Assembly: GCF_030384885.1 (NCBI RefSeq)
Contig: NZ_CP128613.1
Length of the DNA: 64,000 nt
DNA from: Escherichia coli
GTDB lineage: Bacteria > Pseudomonadota > Gammaproteobacteria > Enterobacterales > Enterobacteriaceae
Direction: 5' to 3' (one strand)
Part shown: in pieces, positions 5,845 through 63,300 of the stretch
Position numbering within the stretch: position 1 is the first letter of the stretch
Layout: each line of letters starts with the position of its first letter
Notes under the pieces: generated by a model
Databases searched by the model: none
What the model was told of the DNA's origin: nothing
What the model saw: the letters and a program-made list of their open reading frames with translations, nothing else
Program-made: the position numbers and the translations under genes

Positions 5845-5931
5845 ACGCCTGTCAGGCCTATTCGACTCCTGCAATGTATTGAATTTGCATAGTTTTGTAG
5901 GTCGAATAAGGCGTTCACGCCGCATCCGGCG
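5845..5931. repeat. REP/BIME-like repetitive extragenic palindromic element
   Basis: tgtaggtcgaataaggcgttcacgccgcatccggcg (5896..5931) resembles the E. coli REP consensus; a second degenerate copy (acgcctgtcaggcctattcga) lies about 50 bp upstream. Confidence 0.5.
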
Positions 5932-29690: not shown

Positions 29691-29774
29691 TCAACGCCAT
29701 CAAAACATTGACTTTTATCGCCGTAGCCTTTTCAATAAAGGTCTTTTGAAAAGTACCAAAAGGTAACGCAAGCA

Positions 29775-29819
29775 ATGAATGCTGCTATTTTCCGCTTCTT
29801 TTTTTACTTTAGCACCTGA
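29775..29819 (+). CDS. pheM: pheST attenuator leader peptide (14 aa, 5 Phe)
   Basis: atgaatgctgctattttccgcttctttttttactttagcacctga encodes [14 protein letters not shown]; too short for the ORF track. Confidence 0.85.
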
Positions 29820-29867
29820 CTCCAGGAGGCTAGCGCGTGAGAAGAGAAACGGAAAACAGCGCCTGAA

Positions 29868-29891
29868 AGCCTCCCAGTGGAGGCTTTTTTT
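29868..29891 (+). terminator. pheST attenuator terminator
   Basis: Hairpin agcctcc-cagt-ggaggct followed by a 7-T run, 50 nt downstream of the pheM stop. Confidence 0.75.
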
Positions 29892-30060
29892 GTATGCGCG
29901 TTTTGAAAAATAAAAAGCCTGTCTCATCAGGCGTAATTGTCGCAGCCAGTCTGGGCACGGCCAGCGCGGAGAAACCGGAGCGTACTTAAGTACGTGAGGA
30001 TTTCGAGCACTGCCCGGGACCAAAATGGCAAGTAAAATAGCCTGATGGGATAGGCTCTAA

Positions 30061-33492: not shown

Positions 33493-33792
33493 ATGGCGCT
33501 TACAAAAGCTGAAATGTCAGAATATCTGTTTGATAAGCTTGGGCTTAGCAAGCGGGATGCCAAAGAACTGGTTGAACTGTTTTTCGAAGAGATCCGTCGA
33601 GCTCTGGAAAACGGCGAACAGGTGAAACTCTCTGGTTTTGGTAACTTCGATCTGCGTGATAAGAATCAACGCCCGGGACGTAACCCGAAAACGGGCGAGG
33701 ATATTCCCATTACAGCACGGCGCGTGGTGACCTTCAGACCCGGGCAGAAGTTAAAAAGCCGGGTCGAAAACGCTTCGCCCAAAGACGAGTAA
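33493..33792 (+). CDS. ihfA: Integration host factor alpha subunit
   Basis: 99-aa [60 protein letters not shown] (HU/IHF fold). Confidence 0.95.
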
Positions 33793-33809
33793 TCTGATCT
33801 AACTAAAAA

Positions 33810-33835
33810 GGCCGCTCTGCGGCCTTTTTTCTTTT
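33810..33835 (+). terminator. Rho-independent terminator of ihfA
   Basis: ggccgc-tct-gcggcc hairpin followed by ttttttctttt. Confidence 0.75.
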
Positions 33836-33892
33836 CACTGTCGAAGAGTCACCGTAAAATCAACGCCATGACACTTCAGCAGAACGGATACC

Positions 33893-56756: not shown

Positions 56757-57971
56757 TTACCCACCCGGAGCGACATTTTCCTTTAGCGAGTGATGCCACG
56801 TTTCTTTGCGGCTGCGTAAGCCGATAAACAGTGCCAGTAAAAAGCCGATGGCAGCGATGGCGGTATCGAACCACATAATATCGGCAATACTTCTTTGGGA
56901 CAGATGAGCCGTAATCAACGGAATAGTAAAGGTCGCAATACTGCCCGCACTGTAATAGATCCCTGTAGCTTTACCTTTAGCGTAGGGGAAACGTTCAGCC
57001 ATTAATGTCAGGCCAATTTGCACAACACCTCCAGCAGAGGTAAAACCAATGACAAAAGCAAATATTATCACCACATAAAATGTGGGATGCAGACAGACGG
57101 TAAACAGAGCAATAAATGAGATAAAGGTGTACAGCATCAGTAATGTTGTTGGGCGAACGGTATTACGAATGAGTGGAGCGGTAATAAATACACAAAGCAG
57201 CGAACCCACGGTGTAGATACTGAGTAGTTTGATCGACATAGTGTATGACATGCCTGCAACAAATTGTCCGTACTGTGCCAGCCACTGGCTAACCAGATAA
57301 AAGGTTGCCATTGAGATATAGCCATATAAGGTATAACTGGCTAAATCGATAATTGAACAGCGATGTTCCGTAGAGTTGGTGGCTTTCTCTATGACAGGTA
57401 AGCGACGACCCGGATGTGGTGGGAACGTACAACGGTATAAAAACAGAGCGTTAATAAACATAATGCCTGCGGCAATCATAAAGGACCAGCCGAACCACAG
57501 TTCAGCCCACACTAACAGGCTGATGATTAGCGGTAATAAAAATTGCCCGCTGGAAACAAATGCTTTAATTAAAATATTAGCTGTACCCGGTGAACGTGGA
57601 AAAGCTTCCATCAAACTGGGATAGGTGCCTGCATCGAGAAAACTGTTTGCCATTCCCGCCAGAAAGCCCAAACCATAAGCGATAATGATGTTATTGGTGT
57701 GCAGGATGCCAAAAAAGAAGGCCATATAGCAGCACATCCCGAGCATGATAAAAGGGCGGCGACCAAAGCGATCGGATAATAATCCTGCAAAAAGCAAGAC
57801 ACTTAATCGACCAATACCCAGCGATGAGATAACTATTGAGACGCCTGCGGCATTAGTCTGCCAAAGCGTCTCCAGCGAGGCCATATTCAGGCTCATCAAA
57901 ATGACGCCCATACCATGCACCAGGTAATTAAAATACAACCCAAGTGCGGTAGGGAAATAGGGATTTTTCAT
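56757..57971 (-). CDS. ydiM: MFS transporter YdiM
   Basis: 404-aa polytopic ORF, paralogous in architecture to ydiN. Confidence 0.85.
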   Translation of the reverse strand: MKNPYFPTALGLYFNYLVHGMGVILMSLNMASLETLWQTNAAGVSIVISSLGIGRLSVLLFAGLLSDRFGRRPFIMLGMCCYMAFFFGILHTNNIIIAYGLGFLAGMANSFLDAGTYPSLMEAFPRSPGTANILIKAFVSSGQFLLPLIISLLVWAELWFGWSFMIAAGIMFINALFLYRCTFPPHPGRRLPVIEKATNSTEHRCSIIDLASYTLYGYISMATFYLVSQWLAQYGQFVAGMSYTMSIKLLSIYTVGSLLCVFITAPLIRNTVRPTTLLMLYTFISFIALFTVCLHPTFYVVIIFAFVIGFTSAGGVVQIGLTLMAERFPYAKGKATGIYYSAGSIATFTIPLITAHLSQRSIADIMWFDTAIAAIGFLLALFIGLRSRKETWHHSLKENVAPGG

Positions 57972-58069: not shown

Positions 58070-58426
58070 TTAACAAAGGCGCTCCAGATCGTGTGCATAT
58101 AATTCAGCGGCTACCGATTGATAGATCTTCCAGTCAATAAAATTGCCATCAGGGTAGACACGTTGAAACGCGGTTAAGTCAGGGAAAAAACGCATGGTGT
58201 TGTTGCCGATGTGGTTATTTATTTTCTCTATGATGGCATGAAGATGTTTTTTTCGTTGCTGTCGCATAGCCAACAGTTGCTCGACCACACGATCAGGAAT
58301 GGCGCATTTGCCATTTTCCCACTGACGCCAGCTTTCACTGTCACCGGTCTGGGCAATCCAGGTCGCGCATTCATCAATAGTCATGGCAAAAATATGGCGG
58401 AGTGCCTGGAGTTCATAAGCGTTCAT
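58070..58426 (-). CDS. ydiL: Uncharacterized protein YdiL
   Basis: Track ORF starts at TTG 58453; ATG at 58426 (MNAYELQALRHIFAMTIDECATW) gives 118 aa. Confidence 0.75.
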   Translation of the reverse strand: MNAYELQALRHIFAMTIDECATWIAQTGDSESWRQWENGKCAIPDRVVEQLLAMRQQRKKHLHAIIEKINNHIGNNTMRFFPDLTAFQRVYPDGNFIDWKIYQSVAAELYAHDLERLC

Positions 58427-58564
58427 CGTGTAATGGCTGCATGAAATAAACAATAAAATATAAATAACATTATCAGCCTGCTGACGGCTTGAAGAGAGTC
58501 ACAGTATCTTGTGCAACATTATTGGAAAGAGTGAGGGGCGAGGTAGCGAAGCGGAAAAATGTTA

Positions 58565-58669
58565 AAAAAAAGCCCATCGTGGGAGATGGGCAAAGACTAC
58601 ACACAGCAATTCGTTGTTTCACTCAGGGGATTTCCATGCTTATAAATCAATATGTTGATTTATAACCGT
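58565..58669 (-). ncRNA. rprA: Small regulatory RNA RprA (RpoS translational activator)
   Basis: Reverse complement matches the RprA sequence as I recall it (ACGGTTATAAATCAACATATTGATTTATAAGCATGG...CCCATCTCCCACGATGGGCTTTTTTT), with a 3' terminator hairpin (cccatctcccacgatggg) and U-run; no ORF. Confidence 0.8.
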
Positions 58670-58854
58670 GAGCTAATAGTAGGCATACGGACTTTTTGCG
58701 TCGATCAGATTCGTCTCATTAGTTTAAAAACTGTAAAGAATTTGCGACAGGTACTACCAGCTGAAAGGCGGTAAGCAGGAAAATATAGTGAAGAGCAAGC
58801 AAATATCAATTAGCGGTGGTTAACAATCAGGCGGCAGAGCCGCCTGATGAGAAA

Positions 58855-59967
58855 TTACTTATTCGGTTTCTCGATTTCGCCAAGTTCTTCGAGAATTTCT
58901 TCCGGTTGGTCCGTCGGCGGCGGGACTTCTTCCACCCACGCGGCAAACAGACGCCAGGAAACGGCTAACAGAACCGGACCAATAAACAGACCGATCATCC
59001 CGAAAGCAATCAAACCACCAATAACGCCAGAGAGGATCAGGATCAGCGGTAAATCGGCACCCATGCGAATTAACATTGGGCGGATGACGTTATCCAGCGT
59101 GCCAACCACACCACTCCATACCAGTAATACCGTGCCCCAGGTGGTATCGCCGGTCCAGTAAAGCCAGATGATCGCCGGAATCAGCACCGGCAGCGGGCCA
59201 AGTTGGACAAGGCAGGAGAGGATCATTAACACCGTGAGCAAAGTTGCATAAGGTACGCCGGATACCGCGAGGCCGATACCACCAAGCACTGCCTGTACTA
59301 ACGCAGTCACCACAACACCCAGCGCCACTGCGCGGATAGCTTGTGCCGCTAGCAGCACGGCGGCATCTCCACGAACGCCTGCCAGACGGGTAGCAAAATG
59401 GCGAATGCCTTGCGCCACTTGTTCACCGCGCCAGTACAGCAGGGCGCTGAAGAGAAGCATCAGCGCACAATGCACCATAAAGCGCCCGATATGCGCCGCC
59501 TGCCCAACGAACCAGGTGGTGGTGGTGCCAATATAAGGACGGAGTTTCGCCATGATCGCCGTACCCCCCATATCCAGCAAGTTGTGCCAGCCTGCATATA
59601 GCTTCGCGCCAATCACCGGAATGGTATTAAGCCACGCCAGATCGGGTAACGTCATGTCACCGCTGGAAATAGCTTTAATAAGCGGGCCGCTGCCATCGAC
59701 AATACTGTTAACCAACAAGGCAATAGGGATGATAAACACCATCACTAATAACAGCGTCATCACCAGAACGGCGAGAGAGCGGCGGCCAAACATGATCTTT
59801 TGCAAACGTAACAATACCGGCCAGGTAGCGATAACCACCGTACCGGCCCATGCGAAACCGAGAATAAAGGGTTGAACAATCCACAGACATGCCACAATCA
59901 TGATGGCTAAAAACAGCACCGAAAGCAGAATTTGTGCGACATCCCTGGGCTGACGAACATTTACCAT
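58855..59967 (-). CDS. ydiK: AI-2E/UPF0118-family inner membrane transporter YdiK
   Basis: 370-aa polytopic membrane ORF. Confidence 0.85.
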   Translation of the reverse strand: MVNVRQPRDVAQILLSVLFLAIMIVACLWIVQPFILGFAWAGTVVIATWPVLLRLQKIMFGRRSLAVLVMTLLLVMVFIIPIALLVNSIVDGSGPLIKAISSGDMTLPDLAWLNTIPVIGAKLYAGWHNLLDMGGTAIMAKLRPYIGTTTTWFVGQAAHIGRFMVHCALMLLFSALLYWRGEQVAQGIRHFATRLAGVRGDAAVLLAAQAIRAVALGVVVTALVQAVLGGIGLAVSGVPYATLLTVLMILSCLVQLGPLPVLIPAIIWLYWTGDTTWGTVLLVWSGVVGTLDNVIRPMLIRMGADLPLILILSGVIGGLIAFGMIGLFIGPVLLAVSWRLFAAWVEEVPPPTDQPEEILEELGEIEKPNK

Positions 59968-60353: not shown

Positions 60354-63300
60354 ATGATTCCACAGATTTCCCAGGCACCCGGCGTCGTTCAATTGGTGCT
60401 TAATTTTTTGCAAGAGCTGGAGCAACAGGGTTTTACTGGCGATACGGCGACAAGTTATGCCGATCGTCTGACAATGTCGACCGACAACAGTATTTACCAA
60501 CTTCTCCCCGATGCAGTGGTATTTCCGCGTTCGACCGCAGATGTGGCGCTGATCGCTCGTCTTGCCGCGCAGGAACGCTATTCATCGCTGATCTTTACCC
60601 CCCGCGGCGGCGGCACCGGCACTAACGGTCAGGCGCTCAACCAGGGGATTATTGTTGATATGTCCCGCCATATGAACCGCATCATCGAAATTAACCCTGA
60701 AGAGGGCTGGGTGCGCGTTGAGGCCGGGGTGATAAAAGATCAACTCAATCAGTACCTGAAACCGTTCGGCTACTTTTTTGCGCCGGAGCTTTCGACCAGC
60801 AACCGGGCAACGCTCGGCGGGATGATCAATACCGATGCATCCGGTCAGGGATCGCTGGTCTATGGCAAAACGTCAGATCACGTACTTGGCGTACGCGCGG
60901 TGTTGTTGGGGGGCGATATTCTCGATACGCAACCCTTACCCGTCGAACTGGCAGAAACGCTGGGTAAAACCAATACCGCAATCGGGCGAATTTATAACAC
61001 GGTTTATCAACGTTGCCGTCAGCAACGCCAGTTAATCATCAACAACTTCCCCAAACTTAACCGCTTTCTTACCGGTTACGATCTGCGTCATGTCTTTAAC
61101 GATGAGATGACCGAGTTCGACCTGACGCGCATTCTGACGGGTTCAGAAGGGACGCTGGCCTTCATTACCGAAGCGCGGCTGGATATTACGCCCTTGCCTA
61201 AAGTGCGCCGTCTGGTGAACGTCAAATATGACTCTTTTGACTCCGCGCTGCGTAACGCGCCGTTTATGGTTGAGGCGAGGGCGCTTTCGGTAGAGACGGT
61301 GGACTCAAAAGTGCTGAATCTGGCGCGGGAAGATATTGTCTGGCATTCCGTCAGCGAGTTGATTACCGATGTGCCTGACAAAGAAATGCTCGGGCTGAAC
61401 ATTGTGGAATTTGCTGGTGATGATGAGACGCTGATTGATGAGCGGGTAAATGCACTCTGTGCGCGGTTGGATGAACTGATTGCCAGCCAACAGGCAGGTG
61501 TGATTGGCTGGCAGGTGTGCCGCGAACTGGCGGGTGTTGAACGTATCTATGCGATGCGCAAAAAAGCCGTTGGTCTGCTTGGCAATGCCAAAGGTGCCGC
61601 TAAGCCAATTCCGTTTGCTGAGGATACCTGCGTACCGCCGGAACATCTGGCCGATTATATTGCTGAATTTCGCGCGCTGCTCGACAGCCACGGCTTAAGC
61701 TACGGTATGTTCGGTCACGTCGATGCAGGTGTCTTGCACGTCCGTCCGGCGCTGGATATGTGCGATCCACAACAAGAGATTTTGATGAAGCAAATCTCTG
61801 ATGATGTAGTGGCGTTGACTGCGAAATACGGTGGTTTGTTGTGGGGCGAACACGGTAAAGGTTTTCGTGCCGAATACAGCCCGGCGTTTTTCGGTGAGGT
61901 ACTTTACGGCGAATTACGTAAAGTCAAAGCGGCATTTGATCCACAAAACCGGCTCAACCCAGGGAAAATTTGCCCACCGGAAGGTATCGACGCGCCTATG
62001 ATGAAAGTGGACGCGGTGAAGCGTGGCACATATGATCGACAGATCCCCATCGCGGTACGCCAGCAGTGGCGCGGGGCAATGGAGTGTAATGGCAACGGTT
62101 TATGCTTCAACTTTGATGCCCGCAGTCCGATGTGCCCGTCGATGAAGATCACCCAGAACCGGATTCATTCACCGAAAGGACGCGCAACGCTGGTGCGTGA
62201 GTGGCTGCGTTTGTTGGCAGATCGCGGCGTTGACCCACTCAAACTGGAACAAGAACTGCCTGAATCCGGCGTCAGTTTGCGGACGTTAATTGCCCGCACG
62301 CGCAATAGCTGGCATGCGAATAAAGGCGAATATGACTTCTCACACGAAGTCAAAGAGGCGATGTCGGGCTGTCTGGCCTGTAAAGCTTGTTCGACCCAGT
62401 GCCCCATCAAAATTGATGTGCCGGAGTTTCGCTCTCGTTTCCTGCAGCTCTATCACACACGTTATTTACGCCCATTACGTGACCATTTGGTGGCAACGGT
62501 TGAGAGCTACGCGCCGCTGATGGCACGCGCGCCGAAAACCTTTAACTTCTTCATTAACCAGCCGCTGGTGCGCAAACTCTCGGAAAAACATATTGGCATG
62601 GTTGATTTGCCGCTGCTGTCGGTCCCCTCGCTGCAACAACAAATGGTGGGGCATCGCTCGGCAAACATGACGCTGGAACAGCTTGAAGCTCTCAATGCAG
62701 AGCAGAAAGCGCGCACGGTGTTGGTGGTGCAGGACCCCTTTACCAGCTATTACGATGCGCAAGTGGTGGCGGATTTTGTCCGTCTGGTCGAAAAATTAGG
62801 TTTCCAGCCCGTGTTACTGCCATTTTCGCCGAATGGCAAAGCCCAGCATATCAAAGGCTTTCTTAATCGTTTTGCGAAGACGGCGAAAAAAACGGCGGAT
62901 TTTCTCAACCGAATGGCGAAATTGGGAATGCCAATGGTGGGCGTCGATCCAGCGCTGGTACTTTGTTATCGCGATGAATATAAACTGGCTCTGGGCGAGG
63001 AGCGTGGCGAGTTTAAGGTCTTACTGGCGAATGAATGGTTGGCAAGCATACTTGAGTCACAGCCAGTGGCTACAGTCAGCGGTGAATCATGGTATTTCTT
63101 TGGTCACTGTACCGAGGTTACCGCTTTGCCGGGCGCGCCAGCACAATGGGCTGCGATATTTGCCCGTTTTGGCGCGAAACTGGAAAATGTCAGCGTGGGT
63201 TGCTGCGGCATGGCAGGGACTTACGGACATGAAGCGAAAAACCATAAAAATTCGCTCGGGATCTATGAGTTATCCTGGCATCAGGTGATGCAGCGACTGC

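Follow-up and report, generated by a model that had tools for sequence, protein, structure and literature searches.

The chromosomal rprA locus of Escherichia coli and the wider occurrence of its conserved 3' core

DsrA and ArcZ, like RprA, are Hfq-dependent activators of rpoS translation. The inputs of the three RNAs are low temperature for DsrA, ArcAB/oxygen for ArcZ, and the Rcs envelope-stress relay for RprA. In sequence and locus DsrA and ArcZ are unrelated to RprA, and they are assigned to separate RNA families. The three RNAs share an anti-antisense mode of action on rpoS, in which each pairs with the upstream arm of the hairpin in the leader (PMC3465796; PMC4152358). RprA, whose length is given as 105 nt, is described as an anti-antisense activator of rpoS; it also represses ydaM, and represses csgD via sites there to which nt 28-45 and nt 60-97 of RprA are complementary (PMC3465796). 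The 3' portion of the RNA, RprA60-105, referred to as 'the highly conserved region', suffices for csgD repression (PMC3465796). Further targets comprise ricI, hdeD and narP; alongside the full-length RNA, a processed form of 47 nt is present (PMC9262595). Here we analyze the rprA locus within a 64,000-nt stretch of E. coli DNA (contig NZ_CP128613.1, assembly GCF_030384885.1; hereafter the window), compare it with K-12 and with other Enterobacterales, and catalogue elements that carry its most conserved segment on phages and plasmids.

The rprA gene in the window

The whole window was scanned with cmscan against all 4227 Rfam families. The RprA family, RF00034, matched at 58562-58669 on the minus strand, with model positions 1-108 aligned in full and a score of 118.5 bits (E = 1.6e-16), compared to a gathering score of 70. 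A preliminary description of this DNA, made from the raw sequence alone, had recognized an sRNA gene here, placing RprA on the minus strand at 58565-58669 between ydiL and ydiK and proposing a covariance-model search as its check. The search agrees, the sequence is as claimed, both neighbors are where they were said to be, and the 5' end, 58669, was called accurately to the base. The minus strand of 58565-58669 reads ACGGTTATAAATCAACATATTGATTTATAAGCATGGAAATCCCCTGAGTGAAACAACGAATTGCTGTGTGTAGTCTTTGCCCATCTCCCACGATGGGCTTTTTTT. Depending on convention, the 3' end lies at 58565 (the classical 105 nt), 58564 (the 106-nt b4431 of K-12), or 58562 (the 108-nt RNA of Rfam and PGAP); the earlier 3' end is 1-3 U-tail nucleotides short of the annotated ends, a matter of convention only. 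Elsewhere in the window, the Rfam matches above threshold were a Phe leader at 29769-29893 (plus strand, 74.4 bits), the sRNA STnc540 at 33734-33892 (plus strand, 67.4 bits), and ES036/CssrF at 5854-5896 (minus strand, 42.9 bits).

The features of the locus, with their window coordinates, are as follows.

60354-63410, plus strand: ydiJ
58855-59967, minus strand: ydiK, encoding an AI-2E family transporter, with a 185-nt spacer before the RprA +1
58705-58718, minus strand: RcsB box TGAGACGAATCTGA, spanning -49 to -36 relative to the 5' end of RprA, fitting TN(G/A)GAN4TC(T/C)NA
58699-58704, minus strand: weak -35-like hexamer TCGACG, with 4/6 matches to TTGACA, adjoining the RcsB box
58676-58681, minus strand: -10 hexamer TACTAT, at -12 to -7
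58565-58669, minus strand: rprA, the gene for the 105-nt sRNA (RF00034; annotated by PGAP in NZ_CP027579.1; identical to K-12 b4431)
58640-58665, minus strand: 5' AU-rich stem-loop, RprA nt 5-30, in both the MFE and the centroid fold
58605-58641, minus strand: central region, nt 29-65, putative pairing partner of the rpoS leader (-127 to -85; targeted duplex, a consistency check)
58589-58610, minus strand: invariant 22-nt core ATTGCTGTGTGTAGTCTTTGCC, RprA nt 60-81, the start of processed RprA60-105 (58565-58610)
58564-58591, minus strand: intrinsic terminator with a 7-bp stem GCCCATC/GATGGGC, a 6-nt loop, then eight T (terminator scan; covariation)
58070-58426, minus strand: ydiL (DUF1870), 137 nt beyond the RprA 3' end
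56757-57971, minus strand: ydiM, encoding an MFS transporter

These data identify the segment as chromosomal rprA, an independent transcription unit for the Hfq-dependent sRNA RprA, with a probability that we put at roughly 0.98; nothing in the analysis contradicts the identification. It is a known, RefSeq-annotated textbook sRNA gene, present as an ordinary chromosomal copy. The 901 bp around it are 100% identical to E. coli 2013C-4282 (NZ_CP027579.1), in which RefSeq lists the gene order ydiK, rprA, ydiL, and an rprA that corresponds to window positions 58562-58669. The gene had been described as invisible to ORF-based annotation; current annotation does register it, as this RefSeq/PGAP entry shows. 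The neighbors had been described as poorly characterized membrane protein genes, which is correct for the membrane character of ydiK, ydiM, and ydiN, all annotated transporters, but not for ydiL, whose annotation is that of a DUF1870/YdiL family protein rather than a membrane protein.

The closest described system is rprA of K-12 MG1655 (b4431, 1770372-1770477). Aligned with it, the RNA and positions -1 to -95 show no difference, and the sole differences in the alignment are three SNPs in the upstream spacer, at about -97, -118, and -120. The two loci share the same RNA, proximal promoter, length, RcsB box, terminator, and ydiK-rprA-ydiL synteny, and the window strain departs from K-12 only beyond -95. 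The two distal SNPs, searched with a 46-nt query, occur in only 9/5426 E. coli genomes. The upstream spacer also holds a sigma-70-like site at 58782-58809 on the minus strand (TTGATA, a 16-nt spacer, TATATT; 10/12 matches), approximately 110 nt upstream of the RprA +1, which the strain's SNPs sharpen (CACTATATT here, CCCCATATT in K-12). Nearer to ydiK, 6 nt past its stop codon, a perfect 10-bp GC-rich hairpin lies at 58826-58848 on the minus strand (ATCAGGCGGC TCT GCCGCCTGAT); it has no T-run, the terminator scan makes no call there, and it may be a 3' stabilizer of ydiK or a Rho-related element.

Promoter, RNA structure and conservation

Both promoter elements that the preliminary description had expected within 58670-58720, an RcsB box and a -10 element, are found there. 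The 14-nt core of the box is the same as that in the Salmonella PrprA oligonucleotide (-53 to -33) that was co-crystallized with RcsB (PMC7913699). The pattern alone carries little information, as it matches the window 3 times against 2.4 expected, with no enrichment; the weight of the box therefore lies in its position and its conservation. The pattern was found upstream in 110/115 species loci with full context among the matches listed, and the -10 hexamer is kept as TACTAT/TAGTAT in most Enterobacteriaceae loci. A generic sigma-70 scan of the locus missed the rprA promoter and flagged an unrelated upstream site instead, which fits an activator-dependent promoter. Two loci that are canonical in having ydiK upstream, in Edwardsiella ictaluri and E. 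hoshinae, show no RcsB-box pattern from -90 to +10 relative to the start expected from E. coli; either their 5' ends are at another position or they are regulated differently.

At the 3' end of the gene, the terminator quoted in the preliminary description, cccatctcccacgatggg, is present, with a stem-loop plus eight T detected by the terminator scan. Stem and loop span 58591-58572, with 5/7 pairs being G-C, and are followed by the T8 at 58571-58564. Across 97 distinct sequences, 99.3% of the cells in the stem are paired, a value as high being seen in none of 500 shuffles, and three pairs show compensatory changes (e.g. C-G 74, U-A 16, U-G 7). The 5' AU-rich hairpin, which pairs nt 5-15 with nt 20-30, is 95-97% paired in 52 distinct E. 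coli-like full-length sequences, through G-U pairs plus a few compensatory changes. The first helix of the Rfam structure, pairing nt 2-5 with nt 19-22, is only 76% paired in the same number of sequences and was rejected as the 5' structure in favor of the better-fitting hairpin; the RF00034 consensus structure may need revision at this helix. As a single sequence, RprA folds modestly better than its shuffles (z = -2.3). The 22-nt core never varies, so the feature conserved there is sequence rather than structure. Together, these elements are those of an Hfq-type sRNA unit activated by RcsB.

Within E. coli, the 206-bp gene and promoter were found in 5423/5426 genomes, and 5416 of the 5424 matching records are at least 99% identical to the query. 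The wider 901 bp are mostly 95-99% identical across E. coli records, indicating that rprA is under stronger constraint than its surroundings. To extend the comparison to other species, each represented by one genome, we used the 22-nt core as the query; it has a single match in the window against 0.00 expected (100 shuffles). The exact core was found at no fewer than 120 loci in at least 117 Enterobacterales species, and it is likewise invariant in alignments A2 and A3. Among the matches listed, these loci include Escherichia, Citrobacter, Enterobacter, Yersinia, Serratia, Erwinia, and Pantoea, as well as Dickeya, Proteus, Providencia, Photorhabdus, Edwardsiella, and Arsenophonus. Where at least 1500 bp of flank was available, 105/107 loci among the matches listed have a co-oriented ydiK upstream. 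Only nine of the listed loci, in Escherichia, Citrobacter, and their close relatives, have ydiL downstream of rprA. An E. coli-like 5' half is confined, among the matches listed, to Enterobacteriaceae and their close relatives, beyond which most of the rpoS-pairing region is not recognizably conserved. The variability of the 5' half, set against a 3' core that is kept across the order, suggests that the 3' core is the ancestral functional part of the RNA. That the core, the RcsB box, and the linkage to ydiK are conserved over the whole order Enterobacterales adds modestly to what is already described for this gene.

The same genomic arrangement could be read as a cis element, with the segment serving as the 3' UTR or terminator of ydiK, or as a leader or attenuator of ydiL. 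All three genes share one orientation, the ydiK-rprA linkage is kept across the order, and a processed 3' fragment exists; moreover, the hairpin after the ydiK stop lacks a T-run, making some read-through into rprA conceivable. We consider this reading highly improbable. The RcsB box and the -10 hexamer sit at a fixed distance from the mapped 5' end throughout the 110 listed species loci that carry the box, a strong terminator with U8 closes the unit, and rprA transcription is reported to be strictly RcsB-dependent (PMC6298664). A ydiL leader is further contradicted by the presence of ydiL after only the nine listed loci, when RprA itself is conserved everywhere.

Target pairing and proposed mode of action

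The pairing of RprA with rpoS was assessed using the 597-nt rpoS leader of K-12, rather than that of the window strain. When nt 28-66 of RprA were tested against this leader, the best site was the published one at -127 to -85, at -24.3 kcal/mol. This targeted duplex is a consistency check and no discovery, because the sub-sequence was chosen with the answer known. Unconstrained RNAduplex of RprA against the leader produced giant-loop artefacts and a z of -0.5 relative to shuffled RprA, and a 32-nt windowed duplex scan of the leader picked a site other than the published one, at z = +0.4 relative to shuffles. As both energy scans perform no better than shuffles, the rpoS pairing is not demonstrable de novo by energy-only prediction.

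The RcsB dependence, Hfq dependence, targets, and processing of RprA are taken from the literature, including RcsB-dependent transcription and Hfq-dependent activity in vivo (PMC6298664; PMC3708529; PMC3465796). Because its RNA and promoter (95 bp) match K-12 at every base, the copy in the window strain would be expected to behave in the same way. Envelope stress would activate the Rcs phosphorelay, and an RcsB homodimer bound to the box at -49 to -36 would offset the poor -35 and allow transcription from the TACTAT -10. The GC-rich hairpin and U8 would end transcription, and the U-tail, together with adjacent single-stranded U/A-rich stretches, would recruit Hfq. Nucleotides ~29-65 would then pair with the rpoS 5' leader, opening the hairpin that hides the RBS and raising RpoS synthesis, while this region and others nearer the 3' end (nt 28-45 and 60-97) would pair with csgD, ydaM/dgcM, hdeD, and narP and repress them. 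Cleavage would leave a stable 3' fragment of ~47 nt, nt 60-105, which contains the invariant core and keeps part of the regulatory activity.

RprA-core modules on phages and plasmids

Searches of phage and plasmid collections with RprA returned look-alikes of its 3' half in several elements. Core modules were found in the Escherichia phages LLS, Eeyore, Flotzy, and vB_EcoM-606R2, in Schitoviridae (N4-like) Erwinia phages such as Ea9-2, and on non-mobilizable plasmids of ~77-99 kb, including one with P1-type lpa and pacA genes. A scan of IMG/VR with the core yielded at least 120 viral contigs. The modules, each with the exact core, are positioned within their extracted loci as follows.

L124, 1501-1544: RprA-core module
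L125, 2501-2546: RprA-core module
L126, 2501-2550: RprA-core module
L127, 2501-2556: RprA-core module
L128-L247: RprA-core modules from IMG/VR

In an alignment of these mobile modules (A4, from which the L087 row was left out), each combines the exact 22-nt core with an individual terminator and T-run, and with an unrelated 5' part. They have in common with RprA the core, a GC-rich hairpin, and a T-run, which is the architecture of processed RprA60-105; unlike rprA, they lack the RcsB box, ydiK, and the AU-rich hairpin at the 5' end. Among the IMG/VR matches listed, there are no host-type copies and at least 30 distinct, unrelated 5' contexts, and the CCYCTGARY motif (RprA nt 41-49) is kept in 19/120 modules. 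Across 79 distinct modules, the terminator shows compensatory change, with one pair occurring as G-C 32, A-U 28, and C-G 8. One 266,939-bp viral contig (IMGVR_UViG_2974797879_000001; locus L130, 4571-4592) has the core followed by a different terminator, GGGGAGAGCCGGATGGCCTCCCC and a T-run, which shows that terminators unrelated to one another can follow the core. Rfam scores of the modules range from 40.8 to 63.4 bits, below the RprA threshold. The region of the vB_EcoM-606R2 type is present in 156/5426 E. coli genomes.

The modules are sited in the early or immunity regions of phages, or immediately downstream of phage genes. Their flanks comprise early-region phage genes, with no integrase in the seven representatives tested. 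In the complete LLS genome the module lies between the repressor gene and the early-left genes, and in Ea9-2 it occupies the whole 49-bp gap after thymidylate synthase. A same-strand ORF ends within 200 nt upstream of the module in 46 of the 120 loci among the matches listed, a proportion that led us to reject the notion that the module is always a 3'-UTR element.

Second chromosomal copies of the core were also found. Among the matches listed, three genomes feature a second, 5'-truncated copy with neither RcsB box nor ydiK. In Phytobacter massiliensis (NZ_HE578945.1) the full copy lies at ~1,410,180 (L048, 814-921) and the truncated copy at ~1,418,247 (L049, 1165-1284); they are on the same strand, 8.07 kb apart, and match exactly from nt ~37 to 105. 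The interval between them holds a C4 antisense RNA (L049, 583-671) and an ORF in which a lambda tape-measure domain is recognized, both phage remnants. The arrangement looks like an element that inserted at rprA, or one that recombined with rprA via a phage-borne core module. The other two second copies, in Enterobacter wuhouensis (L087) and a Citrobacter MAG (L107), occur beside a canonical rprA (L086 and L108, respectively); their 5' parts match LLS-type and L136-type modules, and they are therefore probably prophage-borne. Plasmid-labeled records were inspected as well. Five from Klebsiella pneumoniae (H52-H56; 110-144 kb, with one of 1.04 Mb) contain RprA nt 1-106 at 98.1% identity, and four 'plasmid' records of 4-5 Mb (H49-H51 and H57) are evidently chromosomes.

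The Phytobacter pair, whose full and truncated copies flank phage remnants, and the many phages with core-bearing segments raise the question of whether the 3' half of rprA is primarily a phage attachment site, kept by integrases rather than for the function of the RNA. An attP/attR reading is plausible for the Phytobacter pair itself. As a general account of the truncated and phage copies we rejected it, and as an account of the segment in the window we regard it as having hardly any chance of being right. In LLS the annotated attP, a tmRNA pseudogene, and the integrase are separated from the module by ~5.4 kb. Core modules are also carried by Schitoviridae (N4-like) phages and P1-type plasmids, neither of which is known to integrate. 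The window itself has one uninterrupted copy with K-12 synteny, and the 3' fragment has a published regulatory function (PMC3465796). Least credible, to the point of being negligible, is conservation due to a small protein, for although the mechanical ORF list includes a 49-codon GTG ORF (58473-58622, minus strand) that starts inside RprA, this ORF extends past the terminator and its run of T into DNA that shows no relationship from one species to another, the frame is shifted by a T-run whose length ranges from 7 to 9, conservation ends at the T-run, and the core has no third-position variation pattern, being simply invariant.

The simplest interpretation of the mobile modules, judged from sequence comparison, is that these elements may carry mimics of processed RprA. 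More tentatively, and with rather more doubt than confidence, we suggest that 58565-58610 represents the chromosomal prototype of a module captured repeatedly by mobile elements, among them lambdoid phages, lytic N4-like phages, and P1-type phage-plasmids, which may express such mimics. The literature we searched, of incomplete coverage, offered no description of the core string or of RprA-like phage elements, and an earlier report is possible; neither RprA nor the core string appears in a preprint on the prophage 'Pas' sRNAs or in its supplement, which were considered as the same element. The modules are widespread on phages and phage-plasmids and invisible to Rfam-based annotation, and, if confirmed, they could be relevant to phage-host regulation: such mimics would impose RprA-type regulation, e.g. 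repression of csgD and of biofilm, on the host without Rcs signaling.
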